Source: a virus
Lineage: Duplodnaviria > Caudoviricetes
Length of the DNA stretch: 34,104 nt
Reading direction: 5' to 3' (one strand)
Virus record (IMG/VR): IMGVR_UViG_3300032303_000311
Location: 1 to 34,104 of that record
Part shown: in pieces, positions 1 through 30,330 of the stretch
Layout: every line of letters begins with the position of its first letter
How positions within the stretch are numbered: the first letter of the stretch is position 1
Notes under the pieces: model-generated
What the model saw: the letters and a program-made list of their open reading frames with translations, nothing else
Database searches by the model: none
Told to the model about the DNA's origin: nothing
Translations under genes and position numbers: made by a program

Positions 1-120
1 AAGAAATTGGGGTTTGAGGAACAAGCACGATTACTTGATGTTTTTCCTACTGGAGATTTGTTGTTTTTTGTAATGTCAAAAGACAAATGTAAGTTTTTAG
101 GAGAAAGATATGGGAAAGTC
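1..120. repeat. Terminal direct repeat, copy 1 (assembly circularisation overlap)
   Basis: 1-120 is identical to 33985-34104, and the GNAT ORF reads through the junction in frame. Confidence 0.97.
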
Positions 121-1135
121 GGCTTCTGCACCGCCACCACCTGATTATTCAGGTGCGGCACAAGCAACCGCACAAGGTAATTTAGAAGCGGCACGGGCTA
201 ATATTGCGGCTAATCGTGTCAACCAAGTAACGCCTTACGGCAGTTTAAATTACAACATAAGTGGTCAAGACCCTTATGGCAATCCTACTTGGACAGCCAC
301 ACAATCCCTTGCTCCCGATCAACAAAAACTATTAGATATTCAAAATCAATTAAGTATTGGTACTGGTCAGTTAGGTCAAAAAGGTCTTGGTTATGTAGAA
401 AACATGATTAATCAGCCTTTTGATACTAGCAAATTGGTTTCTACAGGCTTTAATCCTAGCCAATCATATCAAGATGCTTATATGCAACGCCTTAAACCAC
501 AGATTGAACAAGGTCGTGAAGCATTAGCAACTCAATTGGCTAATTCGGGTATTCCCGTAGGTTCTGAAGCCTATAACCGAGCAATGATGACACAAGGTCA
601 AAAAGAAAATGACCTGTTGGCGGCCGCAACTACACAAGGTTTTGGTGTTGGTCAACAAGCCCGTCAACAAGGATTTAACGAATTGGCTTACCAACGCAAT
701 GAACCTATCAATACGCTTAATGCGGTGCGTTCAGGTGCTCAAGTGCAAAGCCCTACTTTTGTAAACCCTGCTTTGCAAGCGAATACTGCTGGTGCTGATA
801 TTTTAGGTGCAACGCAGATGGGTTATAACGCTCAATTAGGAGCATCTAACGCTCAAAATGCCGCTAATAATCAAATGACACAAGGTTTATTTAGTCTTGG
901 CGGTGCGGCTTTAATGTCTGATATTCGCACTAAAGAAAACATTGAAATTATTGGTGTAGCTGATAACGGATTGACTGTTTACAAGTACGAATACAAACCT
1001 GAGTTTAAAGATCATGAATTAGCTGGTCGTGGCGTTCATTATGGCTATATGGCTCAAGAAGTAGAACAAGTCTATCCTTATGCAGTTAAAACTCTAGATG
1101 ACGGCTATAAAGTCGTAGATTACGGATTGCTATGA
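110..1135 (+). CDS. Putative DNA-ejection/pilot protein with C-terminal peptidase S74-like (intramolecular chaperone) domain
   Basis: Gln/Gly/Ala/Asn-rich body; follows the GNAT as P22 gp7 does; C-terminus SDIRTKENI...YKY...GYMAQEVEQVYPYAV...VDY is the S74 pattern; AGGAGA RBS. Confidence 0.75.
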   Translation: MGKSASAPPPPDYSGAAQATAQGNLEAARANIAANRVNQVTPYGSLNYNISGQDPYGNPTWTATQSLAPDQQKLLDIQNQLSIGTGQLGQKGLGYVENMINQPFDTSKLVSTGFNPSQSYQDAYMQRLKPQIEQGREALATQLANSGIPVGSEAYNRAMMTQGQKENDLLAAATTQGFGVGQQARQQGFNELAYQRNEPINTLNAVRSGAQVQSPTFVNPALQANTAGADILGATQMGYNAQLGASNAQNAANNQMTQGLFSLGGAALMSDIRTKENIEIIGVADNGLTVYKYEYKPEFKDHELAGRGVHYGYMAQEVEQVYPYAVKTLDDGYKVVDYGLL

Positions 1136-1424: not shown

Positions 1425-2498
1425 ATGGCTGATATTGGAACTTTAACTCCCGAACAGATGTTGCAACAGCAACAGATTTTACGCCAGCAAAAGATGGCTG
1501 AAATGTTGTTGCAAAAAGGTATGGAGCAACCACAAGGCCAAACAATTAGTGGTCATTATGTTAGACCTAGCATATTTCAAAATCTAGCTGGATTGGCTAA
1601 TACTTATGTTGGTCAAAAAGGAATTGAAAAAGCGGATCAAGCACAAGTAGAATTAGCTAAAGCTATAAGAGCACAAAATACTGACGAACTTAATCAATTT
1701 AATCAGTTATTGTCTAAAAATCCTATGGAAGCATATAGTTTTGCGGCTCAAGCCTACAATCCTAAATTGCAAGAAGTAGGCATGAAAAAGATGATTCCAC
1801 AAGAATTTGATTTGTCTGAAGGCCAAAAACGCTATATGACAATGCCCGATGGTACTGTTAAAGAAGTTGCCGCAGGTGGTGAAAAAGTACATCCTGTAAA
1901 AGGCAATTTAGTTACTTCTAGCGGAAAAGTTCTTTATTCTGCTCCACTTACAGGTGAAGAAAAAGTAAACCCTGCTGAAGCCCCATTGCGTACTTCATTT
2001 TTGGGTCAAGCAACACCACATATTCAGATTAGCCAAGCATATCGTAAGATTGAATCTGCTCCTGATACTGCCGCTGGTGATATGTCTAAAATATTTGGTT
2101 TTATGAAGATTCTTGATCCAAGTTCTACAGTTCGTGAAGGTGAATATGCTTCTGCTGAAAATGCAAGGGGCGTTCCTGATACTGTCAAAGCTCAATACAA
2201 CAAAGTCATTAGTGGTCAAAGGCTTACCCCAGCACAAAGAACGCAATTTACACAAGCGGCTGGTGATTTGGTTGGAAGTCAAAAACAACAATTTGAAGGT
2301 CAAAAGAAGTTTTTTGAAAACATTGCTGTTAAAAATAGAATTGCACCTGAAAGCGTTATTTATGACCCTTATGAAGGTTTAAATTTACAGACTACACCGC
2401 CAAAAGCACCAAAACAACCTGTTAATGTTGGTCAACAATTAGGCGTTCCACAAGTCAATAGTGGATGGAACATTATTAGCGTGACACCTACAAAATAA
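1425..2498 (+). CDS. Putative internal virion/ejection protein
   Basis: 357 aa, helical Q-rich N-terminus, position in podovirus ejection cluster. Confidence 0.6.
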   Translation: MADIGTLTPEQMLQQQQILRQQKMAEMLLQKGMEQPQGQTISGHYVRPSIFQNLAGLANTYVGQKGIEKADQAQVELAKAIRAQNTDELNQFNQLLSKNPMEAYSFAAQAYNPKLQEVGMKKMIPQEFDLSEGQKRYMTMPDGTVKEVAAGGEKVHPVKGNLVTSSGKVLYSAPLTGEEKVNPAEAPLRTSFLGQATPHIQISQAYRKIESAPDTAAGDMSKIFGFMKILDPSSTVREGEYASAENARGVPDTVKAQYNKVISGQRLTPAQRTQFTQAAGDLVGSQKQQFEGQKKFFENIAVKNRIAPESVIYDPYEGLNLQTTPPKAPKQPVNVGQQLGVPQVNSGWNIISVTPTK

Positions 2499-2501
2499 AC
2501 T

Positions 2502-4403
2502 ATGGCTCAATACACCGTACAAGCCCCTGATGGACAAACAATTACGCTAGAAGGCCCTAATGGTGCTTCTCAAGCAGATGTTATTGCTCAAGCCCAAAAG
2601 TTGTATCAGCCACAAGGGTCTGTTCAGGTTATGTCACCTGATGGAGCACCCTTAACTACTGAATTTGGACAAACTGGTGGCGGTGCGGCTGTTGGTAGAC
2701 CACAGGGTATTAATCGTACAAATATATTAGAACAACCACGCCCATTAGAATCTGCAATGGCTGGTGCTACTAAATCTGTTATTGACCCTGCTATTGCTGG
2801 TGCTCAAGTTCTTACTGGTGGCCGTCTTGGAACTAGCGAACTTGCTAAAAAACTAGGCGAAGAAGCCCAAGTTTATTCTGATGAAAATCCTGTATGGTAC
2901 GGAACAGGTCGTGTAGCTGGTGCTGTTGCTCCTGCAATGGGTATGGCTAAAGGAATTGGTGTACTTCCAAGTCTTGCTAAATTAAATCCTTACGCACAAG
3001 CGGCTGGAATTGGTGCGGTGCAAGGTATATTAACTCCTGAAGAAACTGGCAAAAAAGATTTAGCCCTATTTAAACAACAGATGTTTAATGCTGGCACAGG
3101 GGCGGCTATTGGTGCTCCTACGCCATTATTAGGAAAAATTGCTAATACTGCCTACGGTGCTGGTAAAGCCGCTTTAGAGCCGTTTAATGAATCAGGTAGA
3201 AACCTTATTATTGGTCGTGCTTTACGCCAGTTTTCAGGCAACGATGCAGAAAAAGCTATTGCTAATCTTAGAAACCCACAACAATTAGTTGCAGGTGTTC
3301 AACCTACAGTTGGTGAAGTTGCTGGTGTTCCTAGTTTAGCGGCAGTACAAAGGGCTGTAGGTGGAAACCCTATAACCACCAATGCATTTGCCGAAAGAAA
3401 AGCACTTAACGATATTGCTAGAACAGAAGCATTGCAAAATATTGCATCGCCCACAAGACTTGCTAAATACCAAGATTTGCGTGGTCGTGTAGCAGAAGAT
3501 TTGTATTCTGATGCTTTAAAGCCATTAAATTTAGGCAAACTTACTCCTGAAATGACTGATGAAATTACTGGTTTAGTTAAAACACCAGCCATTAAAAGAG
3601 CAATGGATCAAGCTAAAGAAAATGCGGCAAATAGAGGTATTGAAATAAACAATCCCGAAGGATCAATGCGTGGATTGCATGAAACCAAAATGGCTTTAGA
3701 TGATCAAATTGCTAGAGTTAAAGCATTGGCTGAAAAAAATGGTGGTTCTGCAAGTGCTGAATTAAACAGCTTGCAAACAGCAAAATCTAGGCTTTTAAAT
3801 TTTATGGAAGATGTTAGCCCTGAATATAAAACAGCCCGTATTAATTATGCTCGCTTATCTAAACCAGTAGAACAATTAGAATCTATTGCCAAATTAGCTG
3901 AAAAGTCTTTAAGCCCTAAAGATTATTCTGTTTATTTAGGTAACTTTTCTAGAGAATTAGAAAAAGTTAAAAAAGAAGGTCATCTTTCTGCTCAACAAGT
4001 TAAGCGATTAGAAAATATTAAAGAAGATTTAATGCGTACCGATTTTGCCAATAATGCTGGTCGTGGCGTTGGTTCTAATACTATGCAAAACCTTGCCTAT
4101 AACAATATGTTGCAAGAAGTTAATTTGCCAAACTTGCTAAGAAGAAGGGGTATGGCTGAAACCGCAGGTAACATTGCGGCAAGAGTTAAGGATGTTGCTT
4201 ATGGAAGTGCTAATAAACAATTAACGAGTGAAATGGCTGAAGCATTGCTTGATCCAAGAAAAGCGGCCGCTTTAATGAAATTGGCTGGCAAAAGACCATT
4301 AGAAGCACAAGTACCAACCGAACAATCAAACCTAGCTAAATTATTATTTACGCAAGGTGGTGTTAATGCAGTAAACGCTATAAGAGGACAATCAAATGAG
4401 TAG
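2502..4403 (+). CDS. Putative large internal virion/DNA transfer protein
   Basis: 633 aa; N-terminal YTVQAPDGQTITLEGP motif, Gly/Ala-rich hydrophobic segments then helical region; last of ejection cluster. Confidence 0.65.
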   Translation: MAQYTVQAPDGQTITLEGPNGASQADVIAQAQKLYQPQGSVQVMSPDGAPLTTEFGQTGGGAAVGRPQGINRTNILEQPRPLESAMAGATKSVIDPAIAGAQVLTGGRLGTSELAKKLGEEAQVYSDENPVWYGTGRVAGAVAPAMGMAKGIGVLPSLAKLNPYAQAAGIGAVQGILTPEETGKKDLALFKQQMFNAGTGAAIGAPTPLLGKIANTAYGAGKAALEPFNESGRNLIIGRALRQFSGNDAEKAIANLRNPQQLVAGVQPTVGEVAGVPSLAAVQRAVGGNPITTNAFAERKALNDIARTEALQNIASPTRLAKYQDLRGRVAEDLYSDALKPLNLGKLTPEMTDEITGLVKTPAIKRAMDQAKENAANRGIEINNPEGSMRGLHETKMALDDQIARVKALAEKNGGSASAELNSLQTAKSRLLNFMEDVSPEYKTARINYARLSKPVEQLESIAKLAEKSLSPKDYSVYLGNFSRELEKVKKEGHLSAQQVKRLENIKEDLMRTDFANNAGRGVGSNTMQNLAYNNMLQEVNLPNLLRRRGMAETAGNIAARVKDVAYGSANKQLTSEMAEALLDPRKAAALMKLAGKRPLEAQVPTEQSNLAKLLFTQGGVNAVNAIRGQSNE

Positions 4404-10453: not shown

Positions 10454-10683
10454 TGGATAAAACTTCAACAAGAGCAATGATCGCCCTTTTGGGTGGGCCT
10501 ACAAAAGTAGCAAACCTAGTAGGAGTAAGCGTTCCAGCCGTGTCTATGTGGCAAAACGGCATTATTCCCTATGACAAGCTGGTAATCCTAGCCGCTACGC
10601 TAGAAAAGCAAAGCCACGGTTTATGGTCTAGAAAACAGCTTTTTCCGCTGTCTTATAAGATGATATGGCCTGAGATTGAATAA
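10453..10683 (+). CDS. Cro-like HTH transcriptional regulator
   Basis: LGGPTKVANLVGVSVPAVSMW..IP helix-turn-helix; located at the divergence point. Confidence 0.85.
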   Translation: MDKTSTRAMIALLGGPTKVANLVGVSVPAVSMWQNGIIPYDKLVILAATLEKQSHGLWSRKQLFPLSYKMIWPEIE

Positions 10684-11449
10684 GCCACATATTGTTGCTT
10701 TTGGTGGTGGAGTAGACAGCACGGCTATGATTTTGGGGCTTTATGAAGCAAGCCGACCAATAGATTTAATACTTTTTGCCGATACTGGCGGTGAACGCCC
10801 TGAAACATACGCTCATATAGTGAGCTTCAGTAATTGGCTTGTAAATAAAGGTTTGCCAAGTATTACGGTGGTCAAGCGTACACGCAAAGATGGTAGTTTA
10901 GAAACGCTTGAACAAGAATGTCACAGACGCAACAATTTGCCATCTATTGCTTATGGGTTTAAATCATGCTCACAGAAGCACAAAATAGCCCCACAAGACA
11001 AATATTTAAACTCTTGGCAGTCAGCTATAGATTGGTGGAAAACAGGCTCAAAATGCGTTAAATACATTGGCTATGACGCTGGTGAATCACATAGGGCTGA
11101 CAATGCCGCAAAGCGTGATGACCCTAAATATGACTATGAATATCCATTAATAGAATGGCAATGGGATAGGCAAGATTGCTTAGACATTATTGCAAAACAT
11201 GGGATTACCAATGTTGGTAAGTCAGCTTGCTTTTTTTGCCCATCTTCTCGCCCAAAAGAAATTGTTGATCTTTATGAGAAACACCCTGATTTATTGCAAA
11301 GGGCATTAGACATTGAAAAACAAGCAGAACTTACCAGCATCAAAGGTTTAGGTAGAAATTACGCTTGGTCGGAAGTAATTTTGATGCACAAATCCCAAAT
11401 GACGCTTCCATTTGTAGGGTTTGATGTTCCATGTGAATGTACTGAATGA
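10676..11449 (+). CDS. PAPS reductase-family / PP-loop protein
   Basis: VAFGGGVDSTAM PP-loop, LFADTGGE, CSQKHKI, SACFFCP, terminal CEC. Confidence 0.8.
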   Translation: MNKPHIVAFGGGVDSTAMILGLYEASRPIDLILFADTGGERPETYAHIVSFSNWLVNKGLPSITVVKRTRKDGSLETLEQECHRRNNLPSIAYGFKSCSQKHKIAPQDKYLNSWQSAIDWWKTGSKCVKYIGYDAGESHRADNAAKRDDPKYDYEYPLIEWQWDRQDCLDIIAKHGITNVGKSACFFCPSSRPKEIVDLYEKHPDLLQRALDIEKQAELTSIKGLGRNYAWSEVILMHKSQMTLPFVGFDVPCECTE

Positions 11450-12000
11450 ATAACATTACCCTTTGTTGTATTGATTCGGCACAGCCTGACAAAGCCATAA
11501 AAGCAATGGACAGGTGCAAGGAATACTTTAATTTTGGCGGTGAAATCTTTATAAATGACCCCAAAATTAATAGCCGCCAAGCATATAGCAAATTTATTCT
11601 TCAGGAACTGTATAAACAGGTCTATACGGACTTTGTTTTAATAGTCCAATGGGATGGGTTTATTATCAATCCTGACGCTTGGAATGACCAATTTTTAAAT
11701 TATGACTACATTGGGGCGGTATGGCCGTGGCATGAAGAAGGTAGAAAGGTAGGCAATGGTGGCTTTAGCCTACGCTCAAGGGTGCTTTGTGAACTAACCG
11801 CCAGCCCTGAGTTTGTCTATACAAATGAAAACGAAGATGACCAAATTTGCCATGTAAACAGGGATTTCTTGGAAAATCAGGGTATGAAGTTTGCCCCTGA
11901 AGAACTGGCTAGATATTTTAGCTTTGAGCGTGAATTGTCAGACATTAAAACTTTTGGCTTTCACGGGGATTTTAATTTTGAAAGACTTGGGTTATACTGA
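11446..12000 (+). CDS. DUF5672-like putative glycosyltransferase (GT-A-like)
   Basis: LIVQWDG, YDYIGAVW, VGNGGFSLRS, NED, FSFE, FGFH motifs. Confidence 0.7.
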   Translation: MNNITLCCIDSAQPDKAIKAMDRCKEYFNFGGEIFINDPKINSRQAYSKFILQELYKQVYTDFVLIVQWDGFIINPDAWNDQFLNYDYIGAVWPWHEEGRKVGNGGFSLRSRVLCELTASPEFVYTNENEDDQICHVNRDFLENQGMKFAPEELARYFSFERELSDIKTFGFHGDFNFERLGLY

Positions 12001-16389: not shown

Positions 16390-16749
16390 ATGGAAAAGTC
16401 GATGGCATTATTTTTAGCAACATTGCTACATTCGGGTACAAACACCCACTTTTTCCATTGGGCTACAAAGTCTTACGCTCAACACAAGACGCTCGGCAAG
16501 TTTTATGAAAACATTATTGATCTGACCGATCATCTTGCCGAAGCGTATTTTGGTGTTTATGGACAAATTACCCAATTTCCTAGCACATACCACCAGCCTA
16601 AAGAACCGCTGGCATATCTACAATCCCTACAATCTTTTGTAAAAGATGCCCGTCAAGACTTGCCACAAGATTCAGAAATTGTGCAATTGATTGACAATAT
16701 CGCCCAAGAGATTGACACAACCATCTACCTACTTAAATTCAAAGGTTAA
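16390..16749 (+). CDS. Ferritin/Dps-like four-helix bundle protein (DUF5856-like)
   Basis: HFFHW.TKSYAQHKTLGKFYE...D.LAEAYFG.YG...TIYLL. Confidence 0.75.
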   Translation: MEKSMALFLATLLHSGTNTHFFHWATKSYAQHKTLGKFYENIIDLTDHLAEAYFGVYGQITQFPSTYHQPKEPLAYLQSLQSFVKDARQDLPQDSEIVQLIDNIAQEIDTTIYLLKFKG

Positions 16750-26053: not shown

Positions 26054-26940
26054 GTGCAGACGCACAATATAAATTAGCATACGAACACCTACACGCTGGC
26101 CGATACGAAGCTGGCTTTAGAGGATTTGAATATCGCTGGCATCCTGACATTGTTGCCAAACAAGCCGTTCCCTACGCACCTGCATTAAAGATGCCTGTAT
26201 GGAGAGGTGAACCCTTATTAGGGAAAACCATTACTGTGCAAATGGAACAAGGATTTGGGGACATTCTCATGTTTGCTCGATTCCTACCAGCTTTAAAGGC
26301 TCTAGGAGCAAAGCAGGTCGTTGTATTGCAAGAAGGTACACTTCACCACCTTTTAGGGCAAATACACGCTGTAGATGTGTTTAGCAACGGTTTAGAGGGG
26401 GTTGCCAATGAATCCGACTATTGGATTGGCTCTATGTCCCTGCCGTACTATATTTCCCTGTCCCATCCTATTGTAAAAGCGATGTTTCCTGTAACACGCA
26501 ACAAAATTGTGGGTTCAGAAGGCTATTTACACGCTATTCCTAGCAATATTCCACCCAAGATCGGGGTAAATTGGGAAGCATCCAAGCAAACCTTGTATTA
26601 CATCAAGTCAATTGCCCATGAACATATGGCAGAACTGGTCGGAGATGACGCTTACAGCCTAAATCCTAACTCTGATGGTCTTTTTCATCCACTTCCTAAC
26701 GATGGTTGGAAAAAAGACTGGGTAAAAACCGCATCCCATATGAAAGCCATGAAAGGCGTGGTAACTGTAGACACGGGAACTGCCCATTTAGCAGGTGCTT
26801 TGGGCGTGAAATGCGTAGTTTTGCTACCTAAAGAGGAATTTGTTTGCTGGCGGTGGAAAAATGCCCGTTGGTACGACAGTATTTGTCTACTTAGACCAAG
26901 TGAATATGACCAACTACCTGAAATCATAAGGAGAATGTAA
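26038..26940 (+). CDS. GT-B (GT9-like) glycosyltransferase with N-terminal TPR-like helix; true start uncertain
   Basis: W.GE.L.GKTI.V..EQGFGDILMFARF, VVTVDTGTAHLAGALG, WRW..WYDS; frame is open and family-like from 26029, about 50 codons before the annotated ATG at 26191. Confidence 0.75.
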   Translation: MTTTVSADAQYKLAYEHLHAGRYEAGFRGFEYRWHPDIVAKQAVPYAPALKMPVWRGEPLLGKTITVQMEQGFGDILMFARFLPALKALGAKQVVVLQEGTLHHLLGQIHAVDVFSNGLEGVANESDYWIGSMSLPYYISLSHPIVKAMFPVTRNKIVGSEGYLHAIPSNIPPKIGVNWEASKQTLYYIKSIAHEHMAELVGDDAYSLNPNSDGLFHPLPNDGWKKDWVKTASHMKAMKGVVTVDTGTAHLAGALGVKCVVLLPKEEFVCWRWKNARWYDSICLLRPSEYDQLPEIIRRM

Positions 26941-28423: not shown

Positions 28424-28446
28424 CTTAATTTTATAAAGGAAATATC

Positions 28447-29941
28447 ATGGCATTTGCTAACTCAGCAATAACCGATATTATCGCTACTACCATTCAAAGC
28501 CGTAGCGGTGTATTGGCAGACAACTTGACACAAAACAATGCAATTTTGCAACGTTTGAACGCTAAAAATAACGTACAGCCTTTTAGCGGGGGAAATGTAA
28601 TCCTTAATGATGGGGTCACTCTGAATTAAAACTCAGATGTGAGAATTCTCTCTGATTGACTTGGAACTCCCGAAGGGGACAACAAGGGGCAAGTTTAAAT
28701 ACAGCCTGAACGACTAAGCGAGAGAACACCTGAAAAGGTGAAGCGATAGTCTGCACTTGGATATAACTTGATGTAATTTAAGTCCAAGAGTTAGGCAGAA
28801 ATGACCTAACATGGTTAAGTTAGTAACCATTAACAAATAGGCCAAGAAATTATGTACAATGATCCAAATACTAACAATGCAAACAGTTATAGTGGGTTGA
28901 CTTCTAGCCCCTTCATTAATTTGCAGTAAGCAAGTTTTTGTAGCAAATGGGATGAATTCGGTGGAAACCTTTAAATTTAGGTGAGTTTAAAGATAATACC
29001 GAGCCAAGCTGTGTATGTAATCCGAAAGGGCTAGGGACACAGAAGGTGTAACGACTAGGGATCGAGCGAAAGCGGTAATATCCCCACGAGCTTCCCACCC
29101 GAAAGGGATGATATAGTCTGAACAGTATGGTGACATACTGAAGTAGAGGATAAAGAGCCACTACGATAACAAAATTGATGAAGTATTGAACATCACCCCT
29201 GATAGCCCTATCTCTGCGGCTCAGTTCAGCATTACGCAGTACGCTGATTCTGTGACAATGAGTGGTCTAGAAATGTTGCAAAACAGTTCCAAGGAACAGA
29301 TCATCGACCTGTTAGACGGCCGTATGCAAGTTTCTGAAGCCCGTTTGTTGAACCGTATTTCTACTGACATCTATGGTGACGGTACAGGTAACGGTGGGAA
29401 AAACATTACGGGATTGGCGGCCGCTATTAGCACTTCTCCGACCTCAGGAACCTACGGTGGCATAAATCGTGCCAACTGGACGTTTTGGCAGAATCAAGCG
29501 ACAACTGGTGTAACTGGTTACGCAAACATTCAAGCTAAGATGACTGATGCCGCTATCAAGTCCGTTCGTGGAACTGATAAGGTTGACACAATCGTTGCTG
29601 GTAACACTTTCTACTCATACTATGTTCAGTCTTTACAGGCTATTCAGCGTATTGCAGGTGTAGAAGAAGGTGCGGCTGGTTTTGCTTCCCTCAAGTTCTA
29701 CGGTGGCGGTATGTCTGCTGACGTTATCTTGGGTGGCGGTTACGGTGCTCAAGAGAACGCAACATATATGTATTTGCTAAACACAAACTACATTTTCCTA
29801 CGCCCACACAAAGAGCGTAATTTCGTTCCTATCGGTGGCGAGCGTCAATCAATCAACCAAGATGCTATTGTTAAGTTGTATGGTTGGGCTGGTAATTTAA
29901 CTTGCTCAAACAGCTTCTTACAAGGCGTTTTGACAACTTAA
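28447..29941 (+). CDS. Major capsid protein, spliced: join(28447-28604, 28842-28897, 29178-29941), 325 aa
   Basis: Joining at U|...G| boundaries gives a continuous frame ...FSGGNVIL-QEIMYNDPNTNNANSYSG-YEVLNITPDSPISAAQF...; AAGGA RBS; position after scaffold. Confidence 0.9.
28605..28841 (+). ncRNA. Group I intron 1 (237 nt, no ORF)
   Basis: Exon ends in U, intron ends in G; P3 TTCTCTC 28646-52/GAGAGAA 28720-26; P7 GACTA 28712-16/TAGTC 28747-51; P8 CACC/GGTG; P9-region hairpins CTTGGA/TCCAAG, GTTAGG/CCTAAC, ATGGTT/AACCAT. Confidence 0.9.
28898..29177 (+). ncRNA. Group I intron 2 (280 nt, no ORF)
   Basis: P1 exon GGGU with GCCC 28907-10; P7 GACTA 29053-57/TAGTC 29114-18; extra GGGAT/ATCCC stem between P7 and P3 (IA-like); P8 CCCGAAAGGG; P9 CAGTATG/CATACTG; terminal G 29177. 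Confidence 0.92.
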
Positions 29942-29968: not shown

Positions 29969-30262
29969 ATGGCATATACCATTACCCCTTTAGCTGGCAT
30001 CGATTTAGCCAACGTAGCTAATACAAACCCTAACTCTGCTGGTACAGCAATCCCTACATTTGGCCCTACTGGTGCTGAAGTGTTCGGTTCTGACGGCTTT
30101 CGTTATGTGTTTGCACAAGCCGCTGTAGCAATTGGAACATCAACAGCTACTTGTGTAATCAACGCATCTACATTCCAAGCAACTTTGGGTGCAGGTACAT
30201 ACTTGTCAGGTGCTTCTATGGCATCAGGCGATTATGGCTGGTTTAGCAAGGCTTCTGTTTGA
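29969..30262 (+). CDS. Putative capsid decoration/cement protein
   Basis: Small Ala/Gly/Thr-rich protein after capsid; GSDGFRYVFAQA, GDYGWF; AAGGA RBS. Confidence 0.6.
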   Translation: MAYTITPLAGIDLANVANTNPNSAGTAIPTFGPTGAEVFGSDGFRYVFAQAAVAIGTSTATCVINASTFQATLGAGTYLSGASMASGDYGWFSKASV

Positions 30263-30294
30263 TTAGCTTAAAACGCTAAAATGTAGTAAAAACG

Positions 30295-30330
30295 AGGGGT
30301 TATCTCAAAAGGATAGCCCCTTTTTCTTTT
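30295..30330 (+). terminator. Rho-independent terminator
   Basis: AGGGGTTATC/GATAGCCCCT hairpin followed by a T-tract. Confidence 0.85.

Follow-up and report, generated by a model that had tools for sequence, protein, structure and literature searches.

Two unrelated group I introns without open reading frames divide the major capsid gene of a tailed phage

The locus raises a simple question: how can a major capsid gene whose reading frame stops after 60 codons supply a complete capsid protein? The window, which is the whole stretch of DNA that was analysed, is the complete 34,104 bp record of the phage; it has direct terminal repeats and, in a profile search, encodes terminase, portal, head and tail genes, with a single capsid gene in the genome. 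The frame that opens at 28447 indeed ends after 60 codons, as the earlier note had read it. Excision of 28605-28841 and 28898-29177 joins exons of 158, 56 and 764 nt into one frame of 978 nt, in which the only stop is the terminal one and which encodes 325 residues (Table 1). The codons restored at the two junctions are those first read, giving Leu-Gln and Tyr-Glu, and both inserts (237 and 280 nt) are preceded by a U and terminate in a G. An independent check comes from the profile of the capsid family, phrog_9953, whose matches to exons 1 and 3 leave a gap of 19 residues that corresponds to exon 2, while intron-less alleles fix the same exon-intron boundaries. The alignment to homologues that had been suggested as a check shows the spliced product to be colinear with two intron-less alleles (L001 and L002), with no gap and two differences. 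The observation that two inserts split the capsid gene is confirmed.

Table 1. Coordinates of features at the capsid locus (window positions)
Feature	Position	Strand	Basis and remarks
AAGGA, putative ribosome-binding site	28436..28440	+	6 nt 5' of the start codon; sequence, predicted function
Major capsid exon 1, codons 1-53, last base U	28447..28604	+	phrog_9953 positions 4-52; boundary fixed by intron-less alleles
Group I intron 1 (site A), 237 nt, ORF-less, without P7.1 and P5abc	28605..28841	+	RF00028 19.7 bits; covariation
Intron 1 internal guide	28612..28616	+	Pairs with exon 28600-28604; wobble U28604-G28612; UG in 19/19
In-frame stop in intron 1 P2 loop	28627..28629	+	Read-through ends VTLN; VTLH in distant alleles
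Intron 1 P7	28712-28716 with 28747-28751	+	Encloses P3 3' strand and P8; invariant in 19/19
Exon 2, 56 nt, last base U	28842..28897	+	Fills gap in phrog_9953 profile; RNA contig has 56/56 identical, with exon 3 directly following
Group I intron 2 (site B), 280 nt, ORF-less, IA-like with P7.1	28898..29177	+	RF00028 44 bits; covariation
Intron 2 internal guide	28907..28910	+	Pairs with exon 28894-28897; wobble U28897-G28907
In-frame stop in intron 2 P2 loop	28927..28929	+	Read-through ends INLQ; H in 9/14 alleles
P7.1 stem between P7 and P3, intron 2 only	29058..29084	+	Compensatory changes
Major capsid exon 3	29178..29941	+	phrog_9953 positions 72-328, E 1e-73
Terminator-like hairpin	30294..30322	+	3' of next gene (29969-30262); consensus match only, count not above shuffles

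Retention of intron 1 leads to a stop after residue 60 and retention of intron 2 to a stop after residue 81. Skipping of exon 2 breaks the frame, as had been predicted, with a stop at codon 54, after residue 53, so that both splicing events are needed. Neither intron of the window encodes an endonuclease, since no sense-strand open frame inside either insert exceeds 31 aa; the longest antisense frame is 86 aa.

The capsid protein shares 48-53% identity with the major head proteins of Myxococcus phage Mx8 and Bradyrhizobium ppBjS10J-1 (48% with that of Mx8 for the exon 3 product), and a search by sequence found no solved structure matching exon 3. The sequencing runs that best match the phage are labelled freshwater or unspecified metagenomes, runs X17-X20 being excluded as habitat evidence for their small word shares. 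The nearest genome match is a contig in a MAG of Ca. Methylopumilus (88% aa identity), which was considered as host and rejected; since the remaining matches are scattered over unrelated MAGs, no host is claimed. A tRNA search of the genome found none, and promoter matches showed no excess over shuffles. The window also contains a phosphoadenosine phosphosulfate reductase-like gene (10676-11449, phrog_424), a match to the starvation-inducible regulator family phrog_858 (16390-16749), a DUF5672 gene (11446-12000) and, within the head module, a weak glycosyltransferase-9-like gene (26191-26940); the last two could possibly serve glycosylation of virion or DNA.

Both inserts have the features of group I introns. 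An exonic U faces a G of the guide in P1, the last base is G, and the core contains a P3-P7 pseudoknot with a G-C guanosine-binding pair, P4-P6 and P8. The P7 strands GACTA/TAGTC, which had been noticed in both, lie at 28712/28747 in intron 1 and at 29053/29114 in intron 2. The fold z-scores of the two inserts are -3.1 and -3.0. In the covariance-model check that had been proposed, the Rfam model RF00028 matches both, intron 2 with 44 bits (E 1e-9) and intron 1 with 19.7 bits (E 0.019), but neither reaches the gathering score of 50; since both scores are under this value, a standard Rfam scan at the gathering threshold returns no match for either intron. The model has been described as incomplete for phage introns (PMC11878797). 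A whole-window scan by E-value and a search of the genome against itself for further introns returned intron 2 only, so that no additional intron was detected elsewhere, though the scan is a weak one because it also missed intron 1.

Intron 1 has a P1 of 5 bp, P2, P3, a P4 of 4 bp, short P5 and P6 helices, P7, P8, P9, P9.1 and P9.2, and its P7 runs directly into P3. Intron 2 has a P4 of 6 bp and long P5 and P6 helices. The covariation counts favour the model, because the structures were derived from the window's copies and the aligned sequences are kin: in intron 1 (19 sequences, sites A and C) 93.5% of the cells of 72 pairs are paired and 33 pairs are compensatory, against 34-41% paired in slid controls, and in intron 2 (16 sequences) 92.9% are paired over 78 pairs, 25 of them compensatory, against 33-44%. 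Within the intron 1 family, P3, P6 and P8 show compensatory changes, P9.0 is paired in only 8 of the 19 sequences, and P10 is not evident from sequence. An alternative P1 register was considered for this intron and not adopted, and the P3 adopted is backed by compensatory changes in relatives over a shifted register. The U-G at the 5' splice site of intron 2 is kept in 11 of 11 site-B rows; rows from sites E and F show gaps or misalignment at this pair, the site-E rows being partly misaligned in the alignment and the site-F 3' boundary having been placed with a one-base shift.

Subgroup IA is marked by an extra P7.1 element between P7 and P3. This stem is present in intron 2, which also resembles the Twort introns, and absent from intron 1, in keeping with the earlier note, which had placed an extra P7-P3 stem in intron 2 only. 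The independent acquisitions that had been proposed from this difference are supported: nothing longer than about 40 nt can be aligned between the two introns, and some alleles have only one of them, others both or neither. In intron A of three relatives (L095, L096 and L099), G is replaced by A jointly at the first J3/4 position and at the second J7/3 position (G/G to A/A), which suggests a non-canonical contact.

Splicing was sought among the assembled contigs of seven runs (five RNA and two DNA, the DNA not being known to come from the same samples). In RNA run X16, a 60-nt contig with a depth of 14.6 joins 28604 to 28842, with 30 nt on each side against the 31 required by the bridging rule and one mismatch in the upstream 30 nt; the nearest of 131 alleles without a site-A intron has five mismatches in these 30. 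In RNA run X19, which also contains unspliced intron contigs, a 190-nt contig with a depth of 3.3 carries exon 2 with 56 of 56 positions identical, joined to exon 3 through AC, a known intron-bearing variant, and a further 10 letters that are not alignable to intron 1. The nearest of 143 alleles without a site-B intron differs from this exon 2 at 8 of 56 positions; the intron-bearing allele L007 differs at none. DNA runs X11 and X14 contain the unspliced two-intron allele, and the exact joints are absent from them. Since X14 also contains an intron-less DNA contig with the site-A first-base mark, this mark alone is not diagnostic. The junction search that the note had called for thus yielded one contig with intron-bearing flanks for each junction, but at low depth or with short sides. 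The exact joint of 28604 to 29178 expected of exon skipping is absent from the seven runs; apparent skips of exon 2 have 55 other letters in between and are intron-less alleles, and intron-less relatives also account for the remaining RNA joints, in which letters are replaced. DNA can be present in an RNA library, so the joints could also come from an undetected intron-less allele that shares these flanks. The RNA contigs give good but indirect support for splicing of both introns.

The introns are distributed sporadically among relatives. In the portion present, introns are missing from 66 of the 80 nearest viral loci and from 67 of the 80 nearest metagenome loci and occur in 14 and 13, respectively; the two sets overlap, and their ranking by exon 3 disfavours late sites. 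Besides alleles without any intron, the combinations encountered include A, B, AB, C, D, AD, ABD, E and AE. Introns that lack an ORF and measure 231-282 nt occur at CDS positions 158, 184, 214, 248, about 435 and 903, and one more near codon 272 (L143), identical to intron 1 at 150 of 168 positions; altogether, the capsid gene family has at least nine sites. In a close relative (L094, L104), one capsid gene carries three ORF-less introns (A, B and D). The L143 intron (1-168, minus strand; the contig ends inside it) is of the site-A type and follows an exon that also ends in CCT, which makes it a candidate for guide-directed transposition. Pattern matches in L086 and L098, which were read, and in L103, judged alike, arose by chance and are not introns. 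In L323, a second partial capsid match (3495-3626, residues 197-240, 75%) lies just 3' of an intact capsid gene and has no intron motif.

Several features point to exchange between phages. Intron A of L119 is identical to that of the window at 236 of 237 positions, with a CDS identical at 779 of 972 (80%), and intron B is 93-98% identical (260-275 of 280) across CDS that are 80-92% identical in the nine alleles compared. The exon flank fits the guide in 23/23 intron-bearing versus 5/133 intron-less alleles at site A and in 13/13 versus 6/147 at site B, counts that are partly circular, as the search patterns include exon bases; guide-matching exon marks are also carried by eight site-A and four site-B loci that were found via protein alone. 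In intron-bearing alleles, third-position identity is higher in the 12 nt or so next to each site and, at site B, stays raised for about 60 nt downstream. Four loci that end inside an intron (L087, L091, L113 and L436) were left out of these flank and third-position comparisons. This rise fits guide pairing and short co-transfer of flanks, and kinship would also contribute.

Introns with nucleases occur in the same gene family. In the capsid gene of a distant phage (L383), an 868-nt homologue of intron 2 interrupts the same Gly|Tyr pair; it carries an HNH ORF on the antisense strand, and its core is identical at 174 of 228 positions. This gene has two nuclease-bearing introns, the homologue at 1271-2138 and another at 2419-3165. 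GIY-YIG introns are found at CDS positions near 80 and 71 (three ORFs scanned, three matches). Those near capsid codon 27, of about 700-800 nt, lead to an immediate stop (L468:1720-2423; similar in L354, L382, L399, L404 and L385). Neither a nuclease-bearing site-A intron nor a conserved neighbouring nuclease was found among the capsid loci, and a nuclease that could move the ORF-less copies was not found in the genome of the window either; the way in which these copies move is therefore inferred.

The explanation that we regard as highly probable is that the two unrelated ORF-less introns splice themselves out of the late mRNA to give a normal 325-residue capsid protein and are selfish passengers, not regulators. 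They are likely remnants of endonuclease-bearing ancestors, and comparison of the alleles indicates that they likely moved between related phages. The earlier note had proposed instead that capsid output might be tied to guanosine or Mg2+ status. That the introns are domesticated switches, which couple capsid production to guanosine, Mg2+ or the state of growth, would be in accord with the established guanosine requirement of splicing, with the essential role of the capsid gene and with the sharper response that two serial splicing events could give, and a 'molecular on-switch' role is in print for introns of phage enzymes (PMC11878797). The proposal is nevertheless unsupported and improbable, because the intron-less alleles, which prevail among close relatives, make an almost identical protein, the many sites are occupied only here and there, and the introns show signatures of lateral spread; no ligand-sensing element is seen in the helix map, nor a riboswitch or aptamer in the Rfam scans. 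It is still less credible that the introns are dead or poorly spliced and the capsid gene a pseudogene or dependent on a helper phage. Sub-threshold Rfam scores, the short P4 of intron 1 and the loss of the His tail (discussed below) from both window copies could be read in that way, but the cores are intact and invariant, the exons differ from intact alleles at two residues, the complete genome has no other capsid gene, the same two-intron allele recurs in other contigs and in DNA runs, and RNA contigs of the spliced form exist.

The means of spread is a separate matter. Collaborative homing, in which a free-standing endonuclease beside the capsid gene spreads ORF-less copies, is a known mechanism (PMC3984707) and would account for recent lateral spread without an internal nuclease as well as for the raised third-position identity around the sites. 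We consider it rather unlikely: no nuclease adjoins the capsid gene in the window, and none is conserved among 123 clusters of neighbouring ORFs from 133 loci, of which 10 clusters, picked by eye, were scanned. Four of these 10 are single-locus HNH or NUMOD3 ORFs 2-3.8 kb away, two beside intron-less and two beside intron-bearing alleles. A partner endonuclease encoded by another phage is possible.

On the preferred reading of self-splicing passengers, group I chemistry suggests that each guide would pair with the exon end through a U-G wobble, that free guanosine bound at P7 would attack the 5' site, and that the 3'-OH of the exon would then attack after the terminal G. After the loss of their nucleases, the introns would go on moving through recombination or repair when phages infect the same cell, and would take along short stretches of exon that fit the guides. 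The in-frame stop 22-29 nt into each intron would keep their cost low. The pattern of presence and absence at five sites in this common group of lake phages offers a way to test how introns without a nuclease spread.

Both intron families extend beyond this gene. The intron 1 core motif occurs in an estimated 600 or so IMG/VR stretches and the intron 2 motif in about 570 (125 and 121 fetched). By the flanking frames of the first 80 loci, hosts of the intron 1 motif are mostly major head families (phrog 9953, 283, 1357 and 267), with four tape-measure loci and one ribonucleotide reductase; among 58 of 115 candidate frames scanned, hosts of the intron 2 motif are capsid, tape-measure, terminase and polymerase genes. 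The 3' part of intron 2 matches 102 phage records, including Twort orf142 and JCL1032, and intron 1 matches two, one of which is a split coat gene in MW202674. In that record (MW202674.1, L454, 2191-3706) a P22-type coat gene is annotated as two CDS and a spurious small ORF, and the gap holds a relative of intron 1 with a read-through tail LLAA. Phage group I introns are described as usually preferring DNA-metabolism genes (PMC12350094); the hosts identified here are mostly structural genes, contrary to this published preference (PMC12350094, PMC11878797). Standard annotation misses such genes: at the Rfam cut-off neither intron is found, and the capsid gene is called as fragments, as in GenBank MW202674.

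The peptides added by read-through into unspliced introns have a pattern of their own. In relatives, they end in a hydrophobic residue, His and a stop at seven sites of the capsid family. Among distinct intron sequences, the frame reads through to His in 3/18 at site A, 3/3 at C, 9/14 at B, 4/4 at E, 1/1 at F and 16/16 at D, and so it does in L143 and in 8/8 site-D rows of a further set, at least two of them being contigs already counted. The His codon was no part of the search patterns; it is written both CAT and CAC, in two unrelated intron families and three phases, and the His-stop lies in the P1 loop (D), in the P2 loop (A, B and C) or in the P2 3' strand or just after it (E and F). The tails of the window, TLN and NLQ, do not end in His, each being one base off a His codon. 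Other ends also occur among relatives: three distant tails end in EYL, VTT and SGW, the distant site-B alleles L362 and L444 in SVA and SAA, and nuclease-sized introns give an immediate stop with tails DNV, DSV and GLSV. In other hosts whose upstream frame matches a PHROG, 15 of 24 distinct structural-gene tails (25 of 34 rows) end in AA, VA or H, as does none of five enzyme-gene tails. In L174, L177, L193 and L149 the exon frame crosses the conserved P3-P4 and reaches its stop in P5, after LAA, or in P6, after AVA. Among cultured phages, the tape-measure tails of Lactobacillus phage JCL1032 (LEMAA) and of phiCP13O end in MAA and LVA and the tail in MW202674 in LAA; Twort intron 1 (RSFT) and the P7571 terminase have no such tag. 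The LAA and LVA tails of other hosts, such as ANDEKFALVA, GALAA and ELLAA, resemble the ssrA tag of tmRNA. The tails VTLH, PTLH, PTIH, GLLH, NLH and SLVH of the capsid family resemble the C-terminal His degron of Lon, x-L/I-L/I/V-H, for which VTLH and FTVH are among the degrons listed (PMC11986505). Unlike that degron, the candidate tags sit inside an intron and would be exposed only when splicing fails.

One reading of these tails, for which we see an even chance, is that group I introns of structural genes repeatedly evolved a quality-control tag, in which the unspliced read-through product ends in a degron, so that a host protease removes truncated subunits of the capsid or tape measure before these can poison the assembly process. 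The tag would have two interchangeable codes, a Lon-type hydrophobic-His end in the freshwater capsid family and an ssrA-like LAA or LVA end elsewhere, and at the orthologous site B a distant capsid gene would have switched its tail to VA or AA. It appears to be kept best at the longest stub (site D, 301 aa, 16/16) and lost at the earliest sites, including those of the window. The other reading, somewhat less probable though a serious contender, is that RNA structure and common descent produce the His and LAA tails incidentally, and that selection acts only on an early stop that spares the folding ribozyme from ribosomes. In-frame stops near the 5' end are familiar from group I introns (PMC3984707), the alleles at one site are related so that the counts are not independent, His is absent from 15 of 18 site-A alleles and from both window copies, and the C-to-A change at site A is compensated in P2. 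Against this, the His-stop occupies differing structural places in unrelated families, phases and codons, a terminal His has P(H)=0.023 in the shuffle null and ends 0 of 40 genes in the window, and ribosome exclusion gives no account of frames in other hosts that cross P3-P4 into P5 or P6 before LAA or AVA. A Fisher comparison of the tails (25/36 vs 2/72) is not to be read as a probability, because of the kinship between alleles and because one off-frame mostly stops at once.

If the tails act as a quality-control tag, the device is absent or weakened in the window, since its tails end in Asn and Gln, which are poor Lon ends (half-lives of 401 min for N, 402 min for Q and 152 min for H in the Lon assay; PMC11986505). 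In most relatives the stub would additionally end in the predicted protease tag; the window copies have the stop, not the tag, probably because stubs as short as theirs (60 and 81 aa) cause little damage. A tag of this kind would explain the build-up of ORF-less introns in the most highly expressed late gene. In the accessible part of PMC8565351, degradation tags appear as engineered additions only, and a literature search, mainly of openly accessible papers, returned no report of natural intron-encoded degrons or of introns in this phage group. If the tails are degrons, they would constitute an intron-encoded device of protein quality control that is apparently new to print and can be tested with reporters.

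The arrangement is less unusual than first thought, because introns in capsid genes and a late gene with three introns have already been published. The tail tube gene orf142 of Staphylococcus phage Twort has three group I introns and undergoes exon skipping (Landthaler and Shub 1999, via PMC11878797). Like the window gene, orf142 (AF132670) is a late structural gene with several compact group I introns, and it matches the 3' part of intron 2 at 77.8% over about 70 nt. The window gene differs in encoding a capsid and not a tail tube protein, in its small podovirus-like genome, in having two mutually unrelated introns, and in that exon skipping gives an immediate stop. The introns of mycobacteriophage LittleE and lactococcal phage Tuc2009, which are also in the major capsid gene, and the tail intron of mycobacteriophages BAKA and Optimus share with the window introns the U before the 5' site, the terminal G and a patchy occurrence among relatives (PMC3706429). 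The BAKA intron is likewise ORF-less, and LittleE has one intron of 819 bp with a putative nuclease (PMC3706429), whereas the window has two ORF-less introns around a 56-nt exon and relatives of its capsid gene carry up to three. Early in-frame stops, collaborative homing and reverse splicing of group I introns have been reviewed (PMC3984707). The Bastillevirinae introns are similar in their multi-intron genes, IA-linked cores and poor Rfam scores, but lie in nucleotide-metabolism, polymerase and terminase genes in the main account of PMC11878797, whose supplementary intron list may include more capsid cases, while the families represented in the window are found mostly in capsid and tape-measure genes.
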